A program made the position numbers and the translations under genes. DNA of 64,000 nt from a virus, in the IMG/VR virus record IMGVR_UViG_3300025154_000068, positions 19,035-83,034 of that record. One strand, 5' to 3'. Under the pieces are notes generated by a model that saw only the letters and a program-made list of their open reading frames with translations, had not been told where the DNA came from and searched no databases. Below, in pieces: positions 1,888-38,936 of this stretch (position 1 is its first letter; the number at the start of each line of letters is the position of its first letter).

Positions 1888-2724
1888 ATGGCAACCAAGA
1901 TCGACAAGCACAACACCATCACCGGCGAAACGCTCGAGTACCCGCGCCCGTCGAAGGCCGTTGCGGCGTTCCTCGCCCGCGTCGTCGATGGTGCCAACGA
2001 TCCGAACGTCTCGGAGGCCGAGCTCACCGCGTTGGTCTACGGCAAGGAGAACCCGCTACTCGACCAGACGATGTTCCCCCACCACGGCGCCGTGACGGTG
2101 GCTGTGTTCGCCGATCCGGTCTACCACGTCATGTTGGACCTGCTCGGGCGCAAGCGCGTTCAGGCGGGCACGCTGGACCTGGGGGCGGTGTCCGCGGCGT
2201 CGACGATGACCATCACCGAAGCGGCCGCCGAGCTCGGCGTCACGTCGTCTGCAGTGCGTCAGGCAATCCACGCTCACCGCCTCCCCGCGATCAAGCGCGG
2301 CGGGAGCTACCTGCTGGACCCTCGCGACGTCGCCAGCTTCCGGGTGATGCGGAGGGGGCCGAAGCCTCGAGGCGAGCGCGAGGAGGCCGTGGGGAAGGCG
2401 CCAGCGCCCGAGGAGCGCGAGCCTGACCTACGCCTCCGGATCGGCAACAAGCCCGGCGGAAGCTTTCGTGTGAAGGTCGACGGGTTCGAGGTGACGGGCA
2501 AGGAGGGGAAGGTCGTGGATGGGGTGGTGCGCGAATTCCGCGGGCGCGCCGCGATCGCGTTCAGCGGGAAGGACTCGAACCGGATGATGGTGCTCGAGCC
2601 GGCCGAGGAGGAGGAGAGCTTCGAGATCGGCGGGTTCTATGTGCGGGGGAAGTTCCGGGTCGTCGAGAAGGTGAACAACCCGCGGGAAGCGGCGGAGCGG
2701 TGGAAGGGGTTCAAGGTGGGGTGA
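1888..2724 (+). CDS. Protein with central excisionase-like (HTH_17) DNA-binding domain
   Basis: MTITEAAAELGVTSSAVRQAIHAHRLPAIKRGGSYLLDPRDV; AAGGAG RBS. Confidence 0.75.
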   Translation: MATKIDKHNTITGETLEYPRPSKAVAAFLARVVDGANDPNVSEAELTALVYGKENPLLDQTMFPHHGAVTVAVFADPVYHVMLDLLGRKRVQAGTLDLGAVSAASTMTITEAAAELGVTSSAVRQAIHAHRLPAIKRGGSYLLDPRDVASFRVMRRGPKPRGEREEAVGKAPAPEEREPDLRLRIGNKPGGSFRVKVDGFEVTGKEGKVVDGVVREFRGRAAIAFSGKDSNRMMVLEPAEEEESFEIGGFYVRGKFRVVEKVNNPREAAERWKGFKVG

Positions 2725-19027: not shown

Positions 19028-19741
19028 TCAATTGAGCTTGAGCAATTCTTGAGTGTGAGTCTTTGCCGCATGACGAGCGAGCGAGCGACGCAAAGACGCG
19101 TCCTCCGCTTCCATCTCATCGAGTGCAAGAAAAACGTCTCCCAACCGATGGCGAGGAAACGACTCCCACCTATGTCCGTTGCCCACCTGAAACTGGACGC
19201 GGCCTCGCAATTCGTTGTCGACCCGGCGGAACGCCACAAGCCTGGACAGACGCTCGTCGGAGTTGCGGACAGCAGCAATGGTATTGACCCGATGTCGGAT
19301 CTTGACCGCCTCGCACTTTCGAAGCTGCGGGCTGTCCAGCTCGACGATTCGCTCCAAGAGCCCGGCGACTTGGGCGCGTAGAAGGTTCTCCGTGCGGTGC
19401 TTCACAACGAGGTAGACGTCGATGACCTCGTTCGTGATCTTGTACGCCGTCTTGGTTCGCGACTTGGCGATGACCTGGAGGGCTTCCCGCTCGGTCAGGT
19501 AGTAGGCCGGCACGACCCGTTCCTGTGGCCCTTTCCCTCGGAGATTCCCCGAGGCGACAGTTCTGTCGGCTCGTAAAACACCGGGCAATTCACCATCCGC
19601 CACGAGCCCCTCGATAACGCGTTGAACCTTCAACGGGTCCGCGTACCCGAGCCGCTCACCAAGTTCCACGTCCAGGATACGCCGCACTTCGGACGCGTCC
19701 ACCTTCACCAGATTCCAGCCGTTGACCGTGATCGATTGCAT
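19028..19741 (-). CDS. Antirepressor-like DNA-binding protein (Bro-N/Rha-type)
   Basis: DVELGERLGY...YYLTEREALQVIAKSRT; GAGGA RBS. Confidence 0.65.
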   Translation of the reverse strand: MQSITVNGWNLVKVDASEVRRILDVELGERLGYADPLKVQRVIEGLVADGELPGVLRADRTVASGNLRGKGPQERVVPAYYLTEREALQVIAKSRTKTAYKITNEVIDVYLVVKHRTENLLRAQVAGLLERIVELDSPQLRKCEAVKIRHRVNTIAAVRNSDERLSRLVAFRRVDNELRGRVQFQVGNGHRWESFPRHRLGDVFLALDEMEAEDASLRRSLARHAAKTHTQELLKLN

Positions 19742-32091: not shown

Positions 32092-32439
32092 TCAGTAGAT
32101 GGCGTCGGGGTCGGGCTCTTCTTCAGCCCAGGCCGCGTCTCTCGCGATGATCGCTACGGCATCCGCAGGGATGTCGGCGTCGGTCGGAGCGTATGTCGAG
32201 GTTTCGAGCTGGACTCCGACTCGCCGGGCATGCTGGTCGAGGAAGCGGTGCATGAGCCATGCGCTCAGCAGGTCGAGTGGGACATCGCCACCGGGCGCCA
32301 TTCCGACGTCGACCGGAGAGCCGAGCTCCACGCCCGCCCTGACCCGCTCAGCGAGAGGAGTCCGGCCGGTCACGAGGACGGAACCCTTGTCCGTCCAGCG
32401 CACCGTCGTGCCGTCCTCGAACTCCCACTTGTGGATCAC
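32092..32439 (-). CDS. Hypothetical protein, candidate immunity partner of MuF C-terminal domain
   Basis: GTGA overlap with MuF stop; followed by terminator. Confidence 0.55.
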   Translation of the reverse strand: MIHKWEFEDGTTVRWTDKGSVLVTGRTPLAERVRAGVELGSPVDVGMAPGGDVPLDLLSAWLMHRFLDQHARRVGVQLETSTYAPTDADIPADAVAIIARDAAWAEEEPDPDAIY

Positions 32440-34940
32440 GCGTAGCCTCCAAGACAACCGAGCACCCACCAGAAGTGCTCGCTGTCTTCACGGTAAGTCC
32501 AGAACGGGTCGGTCGCCACTTTTTCTGCTCCCATCGAGAGCAGTTCGGTCGCGTCGGCCTGGTAGATCTTCCCGCAGTAGGCGGAGAAGAACTTGTCGGG
32601 CTTGGCAACTTCGCTCCACCCGTACGGGATCCCCGTGAGCGCGCTCAGCGGCTTGGCAACCTCGCCGGCGGTCCGCTTTCCGAGGAATGCAACTGCGGCC
32701 TTATGCACCGAAGCGTTGAGCGTCTCGATGGCGTGCCCCCATTCGTGAATCAGGGACCGCAGGTCGTTGGCGTTGACCCGAGGCGGGGACATCCGGATAT
32801 CGCAGTAGGCCCGTCCGTTGACGAACCGGATCTGGGCCCGGCCGTCGAGCTTCTTGCTCATCATCGCGTCGTAGAACGCCTTGGCTCGATCGAGTCCAGG
32901 CATCTTGCGGGGCCGATTCGTGACCTTGGCTGTGCCCTTTGCTGAGTCGATGTTCGCGATGTGCCCAAGGATCGATGCGACTGCGTTGCCATCGTCGCCC
33001 TTGAGAAGCTCGCGCACGGACTTGTCCGGGTGGGTCTTGGCCGCTTCGACTACCGCTCTGACGCGATCGACGAGAGCCCCGGTCATCGGGCCGTCGTACT
33101 TGTCGAGGGCGTGCTTCTTGGCGATTGCCCCGACTTGCTTCGCGGTCATGTCGAGGCCCCGTTCCTGGGCCGCTCTCCCCCACGCCATCGCACGCGCAGC
33201 GTCGCCGTACTTCGAGAATTCCTTCTCCCAGTGCTCGACGGTGTGCTCAGGCTTCGGCCCCGCGCCCGACTTGGGCTTCGGCCTGGCTTCCGCCTTCTCG
33301 GGCTTCGGTGTCCGCTGAACCGGGCGCTTGTCGAGTCGCTTGAGCCTCGCCTCCAGCTCCTTGCGAATTTCCGGCGGATACTTCTTCGTGTCCGGCTTCC
33401 ACTCTGCAGCATCCGGAGTCAGACCGAACCCATCTTGCGACGGTTCCGTCGAGGGAGTCTTGGTGATGCCCTTGCGCTCGGCCTGTGACTTGCGGATCGA
33501 GCGAACTACACTGCGGCACCCAAAATGCCGAGGGGGGTAGTTCGTCTGCCACCAAGGGTGTTCGGCCGGAAGGATCGTTCCGTCGGCCTGCTCGCACATC
33601 AGCGTCACGCGATTGTCGAGGATCGCGTCGAATTGCCAGAAGGGCCGGACCTTCAGGAGCGCTGGCTCCGTCATCTGCTGGTGCCGACCTGCGTTGTACG
33701 CGAGTTGCACGTTCGTCCGGTAGATGGTATTACCTGTGTACAGACCGTTGATGGTGAAGTAGCCGTGCGCGGTAGAGAGGTTGAACACATGTCCGCGAAA
33801 TGGAACGAAGCGACGCGAGGCAACGTGATCGAACTCTATATTTCTGGCCTCAGCATCAAGCGCGTTGCATTGGAGGTTGGCGCCTCCACTGGATGGGTAG
33901 CCTCCGTGATCTCCTCCGAGGGGCTCACACGATCGCTGCGCGATGCCAGAAGACTGCACTTCGCGCGAGGTGGCAGGCCCTCGCGAGAACGAACCGACCT
34001 GCCTAGAGAACAGATCGTTCAGCGATACGTCTCCGGCGAAAGCGCCAACAGTCTTTGCGGCGCGTTCGGTGTTCACCAGGATACCATCCGGCGCATCGTT
34101 GTGTCTACGGGACTCCACTGGCGCAGCGTCGCAGAAGCCGCAACGCTTCGTGACCACGATCAGATGGCCGCACGCGGCGCAGAATCTAGGAGTCGTAAGG
34201 TTGGCCGGTTCGAAGACGTGATCGCTGATTGGATCTCGCAGCGCGGCGAATTGCCCGAAGCTCAGGTTCCTTGCAGGACGCGCAACATCGACATCGCAAT
34301 TCCCCCCGTCGCCGTGGAAGTCGTCACTGCGTCCGTGAATCCGTTCAACGTTGCCTACCTGCGCAATCGCACCGAAGATCTGCGAGATGGTGGATGGTGG
34401 TGCTGTTACGTGATTATCTCCCAGCGTACCAAGGTGCTGTTGCCCACGGTAGCCGATCAGATCGTCGCCCTCGCGAAGTTGGCCCGCGGCAACCCATCCA
34501 CGGCGCGTGAGCATTGGGTGATTCGGGGTTGCGGAGAACTTGCGGCCCGACGCGGTGACGACCTCGACAAGGGCCCCCTCGAACCACCGTCGATGAGCTG
34601 CCCTTATCACCCCTCCGCTCACAAGGGTGTCCCCGGGTAGGCACTCCACCCGCCACGCCGGATTCACGACGCTCCCAGCCCAGGCATCGAGGAGCTGCTG
34701 ACCCACACGTTTCTTGAAGTCGTCCAGCGTCTCGCCGTTGGCAACGGCCCGGTCGAGAGCGAGCAGGACATCTCGAATCACGTCGGCTTGGGCCACGCCG
34801 GCCACGGTGAACGCCTTGCGCTGAGCCCGTTCGTCGAGCAGGTCCCAAACCTTCTTTCGGACCGGAGTTCGACCGAGCAGCCAAGACGCCGCGGGAGTGA
34901 ACTCCTCGACGTCGGTGGGTGCGGCCCAGGGTGCGTTCAC
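32436..34940 (-). CDS. MuF (SPP1 gp7-like) minor head protein with intein and C-terminal HExxH metallopeptidase-like domain
   Basis: AFTVAGV, TIYRTN..AYNAGR, HPWWQTNYPPRHFGCRS; LIHEWGHAIE...ELLSMG; GTG start overlaps portal stop. Confidence 0.88.
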   Translation of the reverse strand: MNAPWAAPTDVEEFTPAASWLLGRTPVRKKVWDLLDERAQRKAFTVAGVAQADVIRDVLLALDRAVANGETLDDFKKRVGQQLLDAWAGSVVNPAWRVECLPGDTLVSGGVIRAAHRRWFEGALVEVVTASGRKFSATPNHPMLTRRGWVAAGQLREGDDLIGYRGQQHLGTLGDNHVTAPPSTISQIFGAIAQVGNVERIHGRSDDFHGDGGNCDVDVARPARNLSFGQFAALRDPISDHVFEPANLTTPRFCAACGHLIVVTKRCGFCDAAPVESRRHNDAPDGILVNTERAAKTVGAFAGDVSLNDLFSRQVGSFSRGPATSREVQSSGIAQRSCEPLGGDHGGYPSSGGANLQCNALDAEARNIEFDHVASRRFVPFRGHVFNLSTAHGYFTINGLYTGNTIYRTNVQLAYNAGRHQQMTEPALLKVRPFWQFDAILDNRVTLMCEQADGTILPAEHPWWQTNYPPRHFGCRSVVRSIRKSQAERKGITKTPSTEPSQDGFGLTPDAAEWKPDTKKYPPEIRKELEARLKRLDKRPVQRTPKPEKAEARPKPKSGAGPKPEHTVEHWEKEFSKYGDAARAMAWGRAAQERGLDMTAKQVGAIAKKHALDKYDGPMTGALVDRVRAVVEAAKTHPDKSVRELLKGDDGNAVASILGHIANIDSAKGTAKVTNRPRKMPGLDRAKAFYDAMMSKKLDGRAQIRFVNGRAYCDIRMSPPRVNANDLRSLIHEWGHAIETLNASVHKAAVAFLGKRTAGEVAKPLSALTGIPYGWSEVAKPDKFFSAYCGKIYQADATELLSMGAEKVATDPFWTYREDSEHFWWVLGCLGGYA
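33729..34643 (-). mobile_element. Intein in MuF (305 aa; Cys1 ... Gly-Asn / Thr+1)
   Basis: CLPGDTLV block A, ATPNHPMLTRRGW block B, VFNLST..YFTINGLYTGN blocks F/G; removal restores WRVE-TIYRTN. Confidence 0.9.
33789..34640 (+). CDS. Antisense-nested HTH + PD-(D/E)xK/Vsr-like putative homing endonuclease (283 aa)
   Basis: GAGAGG RBS 8 nt before ATG; two HTH-like repeats; EDVIADW..NIDIAIPPVAVEV..LRDGGW; wholly inside intein. Confidence 0.75.
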   Translation: MSAKWNEATRGNVIELYISGLSIKRVALEVGASTGWVASVISSEGLTRSLRDARRLHFARGGRPSRERTDLPREQIVQRYVSGESANSLCGAFGVHQDTIRRIVVSTGLHWRSVAEAATLRDHDQMAARGAESRSRKVGRFEDVIADWISQRGELPEAQVPCRTRNIDIAIPPVAVEVVTASVNPFNVAYLRNRTEDLRDGGWWCCYVIISQRTKVLLPTVADQIVALAKLARGNPSTAREHWVIRGCGELAARRGDDLDKGPLEPPSMSCPYHPSAHKGVPG

Positions 34941-36799
34941 AGGTCCTCGACGACAGCGACGCGTCCCGCGAGCTCCGCCAAGATGGTCGCCTTGTGGGCG
35001 AGTTGCTCGAATGCGGCGTTGTCCTTGACCTGCCCATAGTGCTCGGCGAGCTGCGTCCGAAGACGCTCCGGCCAATCGTCCCCGTCCTCGAGGTCGTCGA
35101 TGAGCTCGAGCAGCTTCGCCACGTCGGGCTCGATGGCGCGGGCGGTCACCTGGGCAGCGTCGGTTGCGATGTCGTCAACGAACTGCTGGCCGTTGATGAC
35201 GCCGGACGCCTTGGCTGGGTCGTCGCCAGAGGCGAGGGTGATAGAGCGCGCCGACAGCTTCGCCTCAATGATGGGTCCGACGATGCGTGGCACTTCGGCT
35301 TGCAGCACCTGGTGGAGCCTTCGCTCAGTTTCCGCCATAGCGTCAGCGACAACCGCGTCCCAGACGGGACGCCGACGGCTCGCCTTGACGTCTTCCGCAT
35401 CGTCCTGTGGCTCTGCGTCGTCCCCTTCGTTCGACGCATCCTCGTCACCTCCGAACTGCGGCGGAACCGGCGCTGGCTCCGACTCCTCCCACTCTGCCCC
35501 TTCCTCAAGAGGCATCCCGAACGTCCGTGCGTACTCGTTCTTGTCCACCGGAGCGCCCAACCCGAGCCACTTCTTCAGCGCGTCAGCGGCCTTGTCCCAC
35601 GTGGTGGCGAGTGCTGCAGTGTCCGCCGGCGGTGTCGTGTCGCGCTTCGGCCAAGGGGCCTTGCGTCCATCGCCGAAGTTGAACGCCGCCCACCACCAGA
35701 TGAGCTGCGACCGAATCGTCGTGGCGCTGGTCTCGTCGTCGGCGCGGATGATGGCCGCCGCCACCGCCGAGTGCACCTGCGCAGCGGCGTAGCTCCCGCC
35801 CTGAACCTCGGTGGAGAGGTTCTGTCCGAGGATGCGAATCGCGATGGCCGCGTTGGCCATGTTGATCTGCGCCTGGAACGTCTCCCAGGTGTCGGCGACA
35901 GCTTCGACGAGCTTCAGATCGTAGCCTGGCGGCGTAACGATCGTTGTGTCCCGCCCGAGGTCGGAGATGTCGCTCGCGAGCTCGTCGCGGTGCTCCCTGG
36001 TCGACCCCTCGTCGGTCGGGAATCCGACGAGCGTGCCCTGCCCGTGGCGCTCCGAATAGCGCCCCCAGTCGTCCCGGCCGTACTCCTTCAGGAGCCACCA
36101 GCGCGATACTGACCGCCACGCTCCTCGCGCCCACGGACGCTTGCTGCCGTACGGCGTGTACAGCAGCCACGTTCCGTCACCGGGGGTGACCTCGAGCTCG
36201 GAGCCGTCCTTCTGCCGAGCGAACCACTTGCGCTTGTCCTGGTCGTACCGAAGCGACGATGGGTGGATGACGTCGAAGCCGGGAGTCCCGTCCTCCCGGT
36301 GGGGGATGAGTCGGATTCCGCTCGGCTGCTCGACGCGCTCCCACGACGCAATCCGACCGACGCCCACACCGAGGATGATGCCCCACTCCATCCACTCGGA
36401 GAGGACGTCCTCGGGGACCATGTCCCACCAGTCCTCCTCGAGCTCCTCGAGCGGGGCGTTGGTATCCTGCTTCGGCGGCTGGAACTCGAGAGGCAGCCCC
36501 AGCAAGCCCCGGACGCGCACCTCGCGCAGACACCCGCTCACTCGGTCGTCGGCGAGAATCTCATCGCACAGCAGAGCGGCAAGCCGGAGGTTGCCGGTGT
36601 CCGCCATCGCCTCCGCACGCTTGATGAGCGTGGGCGACCACTCGATTGACGACGAACGGACGGACGACTCGATGAACGGCGCAGGTTTCGGGATGCGCGG
36701 CACAACAGTCGCAGCGAGCGACACGGCACTGGCGATAGCGAGCACACGCCTCCCCACTTGCGTGAGAGTCGTCGATGCTCTGGTTCGCCAGTGGGTCAT
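34937..36799 (-). CDS. Portal protein (Mu gp29/DUF935-like)
   Basis: WGRYSERHG, ILGQNLSTE..GSYAAAQVH. Confidence 0.9.
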   Translation of the reverse strand: MTHWRTRASTTLTQVGRRVLAIASAVSLAATVVPRIPKPAPFIESSVRSSSIEWSPTLIKRAEAMADTGNLRLAALLCDEILADDRVSGCLREVRVRGLLGLPLEFQPPKQDTNAPLEELEEDWWDMVPEDVLSEWMEWGIILGVGVGRIASWERVEQPSGIRLIPHREDGTPGFDVIHPSSLRYDQDKRKWFARQKDGSELEVTPGDGTWLLYTPYGSKRPWARGAWRSVSRWWLLKEYGRDDWGRYSERHGQGTLVGFPTDEGSTREHRDELASDISDLGRDTTIVTPPGYDLKLVEAVADTWETFQAQINMANAAIAIRILGQNLSTEVQGGSYAAAQVHSAVAAAIIRADDETSATTIRSQLIWWWAAFNFGDGRKAPWPKRDTTPPADTAALATTWDKAADALKKWLGLGAPVDKNEYARTFGMPLEEGAEWEESEPAPVPPQFGGDEDASNEGDDAEPQDDAEDVKASRRRPVWDAVVADAMAETERRLHQVLQAEVPRIVGPIIEAKLSARSITLASGDDPAKASGVINGQQFVDDIATDAAQVTARAIEPDVAKLLELIDDLEDGDDWPERLRTQLAEHYGQVKDNAAFEQLAHKATILAELAGRVAVVEDL

Positions 36800-36803
36800 T
36801 CGG

Positions 36804-38936
36804 TTACCGTCTGCTTCCGCCTCGCGCTGACCTGCTCGATGGTCGGCCCCGCCGGAGTCCGTCGTAGTCCTGGAGCTTCTTGTTCAGGTCGAGGGCAGTG
36901 ATGCCCCACACGAGAGCGTCGACCCTGTCTGGCGATGTCTCATCGTTCGCTGGGTCCCATCCGCACTGCTGGTCCTCGAGCTTCGGCAGCGTTCCCACGT
37001 GGTGGACTCTTCCCTTCTCGTAAAGGGTCGAGATCGGGTCTGCCCGGGTTGCCTTGCCCCGCGACGCGTGAACGGCCTTGAACGGCACACCCTGGCGCTC
37101 GGCTTGGACGTTGCGCTCGACAAGGTCTCCACCGTTGTTGACCTCGCCGATGATGTAGTCCGCTTCCCAGCGGTCGAAGGCCTCGAGAGCTCGCGCTGCC
37201 CATTGCGCTGGCGAGAAGACCCCGGAGAGGTCATCGAGAACGTAGGCGTGCCCGTCCTCGCCCAGGCCGACGACGATGATGCCGGTCTCGTTGCTCTTCG
37301 GGTTGGTCGATACCGCCGGGTCGATGGCGACGACCACCCGCCGCATGGGCGGGAGCGCGGGCGAGTACGACCCATCGTCATTGACCCTGAGTCGAAGGTC
37401 ATCAATCCGAGTGCGCTGCCAGAGCGCGTTCGGGTTGTCCTCGAGAATCTCGGCATCGATTTCCTGCCTGCCGAGCCTCGTCCCCTCGTACTCGGTGAGG
37501 ATGGAGGCGAAGAACGGCTTAGCGAGGTTCGACCGATTCTCGTAGGTCGAGCCCTTCGTAAGGGCGACATCCGCGCCTGCACGCTTGACGAGCTTCTTGA
37601 TCGTCGCGATCGGCCTGGGCGTCGTCGTGACGATGCCTTGCGGATTCGTTCCGAGCCGGAACCCGAACTGCAGCTGCGTCCACGCTTCCTGGAAGCGCCA
37701 GGCCGCAACTTCGTCCGCCCAAAACGTGTCGCAGTTGTGAACGAGAATCCCGTTGGCGAAGTACTCCGGCAGGCCCTCAACCGTGAGGTTGAACACCCGT
37801 CGAACGCCAACGTGCTCCCAGGTTGACGCAACGCTGACTGCAGTACCGTCCGCGCCTTGACACGAACTCTCGCCCGCAGTGCTCGCACTTCCGGGTGCTC
37901 CTTCTGGCCTCGTCCGCGCGCTTCTGTTGGCACGCAGGGCACGCCGATGTGAAGCCGCCCCGCTTCCTGGGGAATGGCTTGCCGCAGTCCGAACAATCGA
38001 TGTCGAACACCTCTCGTGACTCGACGTGCCTGTCGTAGTGCGTTCTGGGTGGCACGCACTCGAGGTTCTCGATCGCGTTGTTCGCCCGGTTGCCGTCCTT
38101 GTGATGGATGTGCCAACCAGGCGGGATCGGCCCGAGTTCCTGCTCCCAGATGACCCGGTGTTGGATGTAGTGGCGACCGTTCGCGTAGCCGATGACGTAT
38201 CCGTTCGCTCCAACGCGCCAACGAATACCCTCAAGCCCTTCGTCAGCTTGCCGAGTGGTACCCATTGTTCGCAAGATAAGACCGGATGATCGGCTGTGCC
38301 AGTGAGAGAAGCCCCGTTTGAGAAGCTGACGACGCCTACCTCGGCATCGTTCGAACCCGTTGCTACAACCGGTCGAAGACCATGTCTCGTTACGACCAAA
38401 TCGCCAACGGCAATGGCCTCGATCGGTCTGGGCCCCGCCTCGGTCTCGACAAGCGTTCCAGCGACGAAGCACTGCGGACCGCGCAGTCGATCGGGTCGGT
38501 CGGCCGACAGGATGGTGGCAACAGCCCCGTTGGGCCATGTCAGCCGCCGCTTCGATGGCTCGTAGTGCGGCTTGAACCACGGAGGCGAGATCGTCAGAAG
38601 TCCCGACTCGCCCTCGAGCATGACGTCGCGCGCATCCGCGGACGTCGCTGCGATCAGGGTGATTCGCTTGGACTCACCTGATTCAACCTTGCCTCGGATC
38701 CACTCGGCGCCAGTGCGGGTTTTCCCGAACCCGCGGCCCGCGAGGATGACCCAGATGACCCACGCCCACACGGGCGGGAGCTGCTTGTCGCGAGCCCAGA
38801 GACCTTGCCAGTCATACAGAAGCGTCCGAGCCGCTTCGTCCGGCAGCGTCGCTATCGCTTGCCGTACCTGGCTCGGACTCATCTGGCGGAGCAAGCTTCG
38901 CAATCGCTTCTGCGAGCTGGCTCCTTGCATCATCAA
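36804..38936 (-). CDS. terL: Terminase large subunit with intein (start may be ATG 38882)
   Basis: Walker A AGRGFGKT, Walker B FWADE, nuclease VAIDPA, SPDRVDAL. Confidence 0.95.
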   Translation of the reverse strand: MMMQGASSQKRLRSLLRQMSPSQVRQAIATLPDEAARTLLYDWQGLWARDKQLPPVWAWVIWVILAGRGFGKTRTGAEWIRGKVESGESKRITLIAATSADARDVMLEGESGLLTISPPWFKPHYEPSKRRLTWPNGAVATILSADRPDRLRGPQCFVAGTLVETEAGPRPIEAIAVGDLVVTRHGLRPVVATGSNDAEVGVVSFSNGASLTGTADHPVLSCEQWVPLGKLTKGLRVFVGALERTDTSSATRTVATTSNTGSSGSRNSGRSRLVGTSITRTATGRTTRSRTSSACHPERTTTGTSSHERCSTSIVRTAASHSPGSGAASHRRALRANRSARTRPEGAPGSASTAGESSCQGADGTAVSVASTWEHVGVRRVFNLTVEGLPEYFANGILVHNCDTFWADEVAAWRFQEAWTQLQFGFRLGTNPQGIVTTTPRPIATIKKLVKRAGADVALTKGSTYENRSNLAKPFFASILTEYEGTRLGRQEIDAEILEDNPNALWQRTRIDDLRLRVNDDGSYSPALPPMRRVVVAIDPAVSTNPKSNETGIIVVGLGEDGHAYVLDDLSGVFSPAQWAARALEAFDRWEADYIIGEVNNGGDLVERNVQAERQGVPFKAVHASRGKATRADPISTLYEKGRVHHVGTLPKLEDQQCGWDPANDETSPDRVDALVWGITALDLNKKLQDYDGLRRGRPSSRSARGGSRR
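37734..38471 (-). mobile_element. Intein in TerL (246 aa; Cys1 ... His-Asn / Cys+1)
   Basis: CFVAGTLV, GTADHPV, VFNLTVEGLPEYFANGILVHN; removal restores LRGPQ-CDTFWADE. Confidence 0.93.
37777..38265 (-). CDS. Frame-shifted nested HNH endonuclease with C-terminal Zn fingers (162 aa)
   Basis: QHRVIWEQELGPIPPGWHIHHKDGNRANNAIENLECV; four CxxC/CxxxC motifs; different frame from intein, wholly inside it. Confidence 0.85.
   Translation of the reverse strand: MGTTRQADEGLEGIRWRVGANGYVIGYANGRHYIQHRVIWEQELGPIPPGWHIHHKDGNRANNAIENLECVPPRTHYDRHVESREVFDIDCSDCGKPFPRKRGGFTSACPACQQKRADEARRSTRKCEHCGREFVSRRGRYCSQRCVNLGARWRSTGVQPHG

Follow-up and report, generated by a model that had tools for sequence, protein, structure and literature searches.

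The 64,000-nt stretch of DNA analysed here (the window) comprises positions 19,035 to 83,034 of the IMG/VR record IMGVR_UViG_3300025154_000068, an uncultured virus record of 83 kb; the sequencing runs listed for the stretch are groundwater metagenomes. On its minus strand, a MuF-like head morphogenesis (minor capsid) gene is interrupted by a 915-bp insert encoding an intein of 305 amino acids (aa; positions 33729-34643), and the opposite strand of this insert carries a second gene encoding 283 aa (33789-34640, plus strand). This antisense gene is genuine: it is conserved, and purifying selection acts on it in its own right. We consider it probable that the insert as a whole is a composite selfish element, in which a splicing intein is combined with an antisense Vsr-like homing nuclease that drives its homing. 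A separate antisense homing-nuclease gene had been proposed in a first-pass annotation of the window, and the present analysis supports this proposal by codon-aligned arrangement at 45 loci, a switch of the selected frame along the element, frozen synonymous sites in splicing block B, a profile match to the proven homing endonuclease I-Bth0305I and the existence of an intein-free allele. From these sequence data, we infer that the antisense gene may be expressed and that its product may cleave DNA and promote homing.

The antisense open reading frame (ORF) was found exactly, to the base, where the first-pass annotation had placed it, that is wholly within the intein, and it is in exact codon register with the sense frame. 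It overlaps splicing blocks A, B and F, and its translation signals are complements of intein codons, as previously noted for the ribosome-binding site and the stop: the ATG lies opposite the block-F His codon CAT, the Shine-Dalgarno-like site GAGAGG (33775-33780, plus strand), located 8 nt 5' of the ATG, opposite the block-F Asn-Leu-Ser codons, and the TAG stop (34638-34640) opposite intein codon 2, CTA (Leu). An equivalent of this ribosome-binding site, (G/A)AGGTT, was present at the same distance in most of 32 non-redundant loci. In the window itself, with a GC content of 64%, an open codon-aligned antisense frame is not beyond chance on its own (P0 = 0.25), because the codons TTA, CTA and TCA, which would close it, are rare at this GC content (0.5% of extein codons). 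Likewise, GC content at third codon positions did not separate the two frames inside the intein, being about 0.65 for each. We take the significance of the antisense ORF to rest on Pfam matches, homologues and the pattern of substitutions.

When the region was compared with phage records by megablast, nothing matched. At the protein level, tblastn with the window protein revealed homologues on the strand opposite MuF or head-morphogenesis genes in phages of Gordonia, Vibrio, Pseudomonas and Cronobacter, with identities of 23-35% for those antisense to MuF in the first three; the Gordonia phages Vivi2, Fosterous, Affeca and Angelicage were matched with E values of 1e-21 to 1e-25. When a relative served as the query, 130 phage records were matched, including Salmonella Jerseyvirus and E. 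coli Kagunavirus, and a profile search of 1.84 billion representative proteins returned 1,030 at E <= 1e-30. All matches in the phage database were situated in MuF-type genes, and each one examined closely ran antisense within a MuF intein. A further 42 loci came from scans of viral contigs and genomes, giving a total of 45 related MuF-intein loci with GC contents of 0.43-0.70. At every one of them the homologue was located inside a long opposite-strand ORF in codon-aligned register, and in 43 the antisense frame was open. Where both ends could be defined, the host ORF proved to be a MuF intein of 269-317 aa (301-311 aa in 35/40), and the antisense ORF always fitted within the intein boundaries.

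Two insertion sites in MuF were distinguished, RTE|C...TGN|T (the window type; bars mark the splice junctions) and xIN|C...xN|C(K/R)C. The second one, xIN|C(K/R)C, near the C-terminal end of the MuF domain, was occupied in phages of Gordonia, Vibrio and Pseudomonas as well as in two viruses from metagenomes (L001-L003, L041 and L043). The presence of the same unit of intein and antisense gene at this second site implies a past change of insertion site. In the Vibrio phage vB_VaM_H2 (L002), a sequence TTGACT-18-TATTAT was observed 46 nt upstream of the antisense ATG (2393-2422, plus strand), with the -35 hexamer in the complement of the C-extein and the -10 hexamer inside the intein; as a single consensus match at chance frequency, it is noted as a promoter lead only.

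When two frames are codon-aligned, each third codon position in one coincides with a first position in the other. We compared variability at the three codon positions over 28 non-redundant inteins of the window's insertion site, in bins of 15 residues. The sense third position was the most variable in intein residues 1-60 and 286-305, whereas the antisense third position was the most variable in most bins between residues 61 and 270. No position was preferred in residues 31-45 (block B), 76-90, 106-120 and 151-165. The same switch was seen in the ratio of nonsynonymous to synonymous differences (pN/pS) for a pair of loci 87% identical (L020/L024). In the N-terminal splicing part, pN/pS was 0.12 in the sense and 0.83 in the antisense frame, and in the C-terminal splicing part 0.07 and 1.31, respectively; in the middle, the relation was reversed, with 1.00 in the sense and 0.20 in the antisense frame. 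The direction was the same, though the effect was weaker, in a second pair and in the mean taken over 18 pairs.

In block B, both strands are coding. Its synonymous sites in the sense frame are frozen, with Thr ACC, Asn AAT and His CAC in 32/32 inteins and Pro as CCG or CCT in 32/32; by this means the antisense residues V-I-R-G are kept. Nearby block-F codons are free at synonymous sites, except for His, which is CAT in 29/31. The doubly constrained segment (34506-34535, both strands) encodes SATPNHPMLT of block B in the sense direction and REHWVIRGCGE, a beta-hairpin of the nuclease, in the antisense direction, and shows low variability at all three codon positions. Taken together, the substitution data indicate that the middle of the insert is selected as a plus-strand protein and the ends as an intein, with block B constrained on both strands.

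The intein itself conforms to the class 1 type. The intact splicing blocks described in the first-pass annotation are all in place: Cys1, CLPGD...LYTGN, block B TPNHP (T39-P-N-H42), block F GHVFNL, the terminal Asn305 and Thr at position +1. It resides on the minus strand in MuF at WRVE|TIYRTN, and its delimitation follows from these blocks, from structure prediction and from its absence in a close relative (L049, see below). The penultimate residue is Gly and not His, as in most other copies at this site (TGN or SGN, a few AN or SN). In the AlphaFold2 (AF2) model of the sense frame, high confidence is restricted to residues 1-66 and 268-305; the model's confidence scores (pLDDT) reach 86-95 in residues 1-60 and 85-96 in residues 271-305, all of it beta-strand with a HINT fold. 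By profile, the sense frame gives weak intein matches only (Pfam Intein_splicing 21.9 bits, below the cut-off of 35.8). Protein splicing is suggested by the conserved blocks and by purifying selection on the sense frame of both splicing parts (pN/pS 0.07-0.12).

The middle of the intein had been called featureless. This description holds for residues 166-264, where pLDDT is below 40, but not for residues 81-165, which were modelled with moderate confidence. The latter region also contains an invariant FHGDG motif, so that one might suppose a real, unrecognised endonuclease in the sense frame, for example around DFHGD, with the plus-strand ORF as a mere by-product of high GC; the substantial chance of an open frame in the window, given above, would fit this supposition. 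We regard it as very improbable. At loci with a GC content of only 0.43-0.47, the antisense frame is open at chance probabilities between 1e-7 and 1e-9 (1.8e-7 for L010, 1.4e-9 for L002), substitutions in the middle concentrate at the antisense third position, and Pfam helix-turn-helix (HTH) matches above threshold together with a confident fold were obtained for the plus frame only. The sense FHGDG is simply the complement of plus-frame VAVEV. Moreover, the sense elements modelled at intein residues 86-130 sit exactly opposite a helix and strands of the plus-frame protein (i + j = 286), and we read them as an echo of the antisense protein in the model. Contradicted by codon-position variability, pN/pS, the open frames at low GC and the frozen block B, an explanation by GC artefact or by a sense-frame nuclease was rejected. 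As an aside, a passenger frame can apparently take on a partly folded look in AF2 through covariation inherited from the opposite strand.

The antisense protein is composed of a DNA-binding and a nuclease-like part, as the first-pass annotation had anticipated from two HTH-like repeats and a C-terminal nuclease pattern. Both repeats scored above the Pfam cut-offs: the first HTH, residues 6-41 (33804-33911, plus strand), matched HTH_23 with 25.4 bits (cut-off 24.6) and coincides with AF2 helices at 7-43, and the second, residues 73-104 (34005-34100, plus strand), matched HTH_28 with 31.4 bits (cut-off 25), with AF2 helices at 73-106. AF2 run on an alignment of 32 plus-frame members gave a mean pLDDT of 88; in the model, two HTH units of three helices each precede an alpha/beta nuclease-like domain. 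This domain spans about residues 139-262 (34203-34574, plus strand), with the topology alpha-beta-beta-beta-alpha-beta-alpha-beta-beta and pLDDT of 90-97, and is supported by alignment, AF2, hhalign and Foldseek. All 32 proteins of the family have E142, N166, D168 and R194, and at least 90% have Q159 and E177.

Fold and profile comparisons support the nuclease-like character of the C-terminal part. Foldseek against BFVD returned phage proteins labelled DNA mismatch endonuclease, DUF559 and NUMOD endonucleases, with E values from 5e-13 to 1e-3. The family profile aligned by hhalign to I-Bth0305I with a probability of 92.5% and E of 4.9e-7 over 181 columns, covering the HTH region and the E...NxD...E core and pairing E142, D168 and E177 of the window protein with E170, D196 and E206. 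Homology to I-Bth0305I, the nuclease core included, is thus detectable, and the two proteins share an N-terminal bipartite HTH/NUMOD region and a C-terminal Vsr-like nuclease. The EDxHD motif of I-Bth0305I consists of E170, D196, N208, H213 and D222 (Taylor et al. 2011, PMC3239194); this composite motif was not recovered in full, as H213 and D222 align with N184 and L190 in the window, positions that vary across the family. Foldseek against the PDB gave no match at E <= 0.001 for the whole two-part model, an HMMER profile matched only the HTH part among PDB sequences and had no match to 3R3P, and for PF18741 (REase_MTES_1575) the cut-off of 38.2 bits was not reached, with no match of the window protein at E <= 1 and sub-threshold matches in 10/32 family members (best E 8.6e-7). 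The antisense protein is thus related to the Vsr-like homing endonucleases, but its active site has diverged.

Mobility of the element is indicated by alleles from which it is missing. The closest extein relative is L049, with 97% protein identity in the C-extein and DNA about 91% identical on either side; precisely the 915 bp are missing from it, and its junction reads WRIE|TIHRTN. Five further relatives (L050-L054) are also intein-free, and the junction of all these sequences (L049-L054) can be written as WR(I/L)E|TI(H/F)RTN, in accordance with precise insertion. Near-identical phages differ in whether they carry the element. When the window was compared with L049, mismatches were found to cluster within 30 nt of the junction, amounting to 8 and 6 per 30 nt, and to drop to 0-2 per 30 nt in the following 270 nt of C-extein, a pattern to be expected from co-conversion during homing or from divergence of target sites. 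Inspection of the intein-free junction by eye for a palindromic target yielded 4-bp arms only (ATCG-AGA-CGAT in L049).

Three loci deserve separate mention as to the state of their reading frames. In L018 (1116-2024), the antisense gene contains two internal stops while the sense frame is open; in L014 (2941-3861), the block-F His is replaced by Tyr (TAT), hence the antisense ATG is lost and the sense frame is again open; in L040, both frames are truncated. They give the impression of an endonuclease in stages of decay, which would fit a homing cycle.

The same loci can be read differently. Since L018 and L014 keep an intact intein with a broken ORF or without its ATG, intein maintenance does not depend on the ORF, and the antisense gene could be selected without being, or while no longer being, the homing nuclease of the intein: i) it might encode a DNA-binding regulator, ii) it might be a nuclease acting otherwise in competition among phages, or iii) it might be a free-standing endonuclease gene which moves by itself and uses the intein as a harmless landing pad. 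The missing His and second Asp of EDxHD would agree with this, as would the mostly vertical inheritance reported for several VSR-like groups in a preprint (bioRxiv 10.1101/2025.01.02.630785). Several further points weigh against a homing role as well. The equivalents of His213 and Asp222 not being conserved, the catalytic mechanism and even activity are not assured; the Foldseek match to the catalytic domain of I-Bth0305I (3r3p_B) is weak (prob 0.87, TMt 0.57, E 0.25); the plus strand upstream of the antisense ORF yielded no sigma-70-like promoter, either in the window or in Salmonella phage PK2; the mismatch cluster at the junction could reflect target-site divergence instead of co-conversion; and part of the plus-frame conservation (e.g. 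VIRG.GE) follows automatically from the conserved intein block B. Nevertheless, we judge such a selected gene with another function to be unlikely, though not negligible. The invariant or nearly invariant core residues are those of a nuclease-like domain, the phage-database matches are without exception in MuF-type genes, the antisense ORF is confined to the intein boundaries at all loci, and an intein-free allele with junction-proximal divergence exists in the near-identical phage L049.

We therefore prefer a homing element, for which the following model can be proposed. On the minus strand, the insert would be translated within MuF, and the HINT domain, formed by approximately the first 66 and the last 40 residues, would excise the whole insert, most of the sense-frame middle being a stop-free passenger linker. 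On the plus strand, the antisense gene encodes a bipartite HTH DNA-binding module joined to a nuclease of Vsr-like / PD-(D/E)xK fold, related to the EDxHD enzyme I-Bth0305I. In a mixed infection, MuF alleles free of the intein would be cut by this nuclease at or close to WR(I/V)E|TI(H/Y)RTN, and during repair from the intein-bearing copy the element would be transferred as a whole, along with short tracts of flanking sequence. Signals for the antisense gene are borrowed from conserved intein codons: ATG from the block-F His CAT, GAGG from the Asn-Leu codons and the stop from Leu codon 2 (CTA or TTA), with the C-terminal beta-hairpin of the nuclease encoded opposite block B. That antisense coding would uncouple homing from late-gene expression was suggested in the first-pass annotation, and might be considered in this context.

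In canonical bifunctional inteins, an in-frame LAGLIDADG or HNH endonuclease is contained within the intein polypeptide. The element of the window is similar in that its HINT domain is interrupted at the same topological point by DNA coding for a mobility enzyme; it is unlike them in that the endonuclease is a separate protein encoded on the opposite strand. In this latter respect it corresponds to a class already described. Gosselin, Arsenault and Gogarten (bioRxiv 10.1101/2025.01.02.630785) report actinobacteriophage genes whose full inteins carry a VSR-like homing endonuclease in anti-sense orientation, name minor capsid as one of four host protein types with non-canonical architectures, and give structure predictions as well as a link to 3R3P (I-Bth0305I) by HHpred. 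The window shares with these inteins the intact splicing element, the endonuclease on the opposite strand and a sense middle with neither a recognisable fold nor an in-frame endonuclease, and so belongs with them. The novelty implied by the first-pass annotation was thus overstated: the layout is already known, and the window is a further example, homologous to the MuF copies of Gordonia phages. In the parts of the preprint that were read, we did not find i) the codon-aligned register in 45/45 loci, ii) the derivation of translation signals from intein codons, iii) the overlap with blocks A, B and F, iv) the doubly constrained block B, v) the missing His and Asp of EDxHD or vi) the wide spread in phages of Proteobacteria.

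Other known systems resemble the element in part. I-Bth0305I (gp29 of Bacillus phage 0305phi8-36) is encoded on the sense strand of a group I intron in a recombinase gene (PMC3239194), unlike the antisense family, which in turn lacks conserved equivalents of its His213 and Asp222. In the 'fractured genes' of Dassa et al. 2009, as cited in the preprint (bioRxiv 10.1101/2025.01.02.630785), a free-standing Vsr-like endonuclease gene lies between the halves of a split intein. Here too a Vsr-like endonuclease is a separate intein-associated gene, but fractured genes have intein and host split in two genes, whereas the window intein is contiguous and the antisense overlap measures about 850 bp. Finally, inteins with antisense LAGLIDADG ORFs (Gorbalenya 1998; Gogarten et al. 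2002; both as cited there) likewise place an endonuclease ORF opposite a functional intein, but involve another nuclease family and other host genes (dnaX, SpoVR-like, some actinophage minor capsid).

Regarding genomic context, the MuF-like gene occupies 32436-34940 on the minus strand according to the ORF list, and its product matched Phage_Mu_F (PF04233) with E of 2.5e-15 and 57.6 bits (cut-off 29.6), which places the host gene in the MuF family. Its frame is open up to 35075; a probable GTG start at 34940, adjoining the stop of the portal gene, was chosen by the N-termini of intein-free relatives (MTAPWAAS...). The gene order on the minus strand is large terminase, a 620-aa ORF in the portal position and the MuF-like gene. 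At the portal-MuF boundary (window 34937-35485 versus L049 1198-2204), segments at the end of the portal gene could not be aligned: L049 carries about 281 extra bases before MuF, and window positions 35306-35485 remain unaligned.

The large-terminase gene contains an intein of its own, 246 aa long (37734-38471, minus strand; CFVAGT...ILVHN|C), with matches to Pfam Hint_2 and Intein_splicing. The middle of its sense frame is Ser/Thr/Arg-rich junk, and on the same strand in frame 3 an ORF of 162 aa (37780-38265) encodes an HNH_3 endonuclease (PF13392, E 2e-18), relatives of which occur in other phages both free-standing and under terL genes. Such an intein with a shifted-frame HNH ORF resembles the 'out-of-frame' architecture described in the preprint (bioRxiv 10.1101/2025.01.02.630785).

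As for annotation, the antisense gene is largely missed by annotation pipelines. Among five phage records inspected, it was unannotated in Vivi2, Vibrio H2, Pseudomonas BR313c and E. coli Snoke, of which Snoke has the intein annotated, and in Salmonella phage PK2 the antisense ORF is listed as a 'hypothetical protein'. The annotation of the window can be corrected accordingly, with MuF comprising an intein and a nested endonuclease gene, listed as a putative homing endonuclease, and the terminase a second non-canonical intein. Carriers include easily grown phages of Salmonella, E. coli, Pseudomonas, Vibrio and Gordonia.

The element represents a natural case in which about 850 bp encode two proteins on opposite strands, with the selected frame switching along its length. 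We put forward only tentatively, and with some doubt, that the overlap constitutes a genetic interlock, with the start, ribosome-binding site, stop and a beta-hairpin of the nuclease all lying in the complement of essential splicing codons and a sense frame which has to stay open, and that, within the Vsr-like homing family, the nuclease represents a novel catalytic variant having an E-D-E core without the His and Asp of EDxHD. If the interlock is true, frameshifts and many deletions in either partner would be lethal to MuF; decay of the endonuclease after fixation would therefore be slowed, and intein and nuclease would be inseparable.

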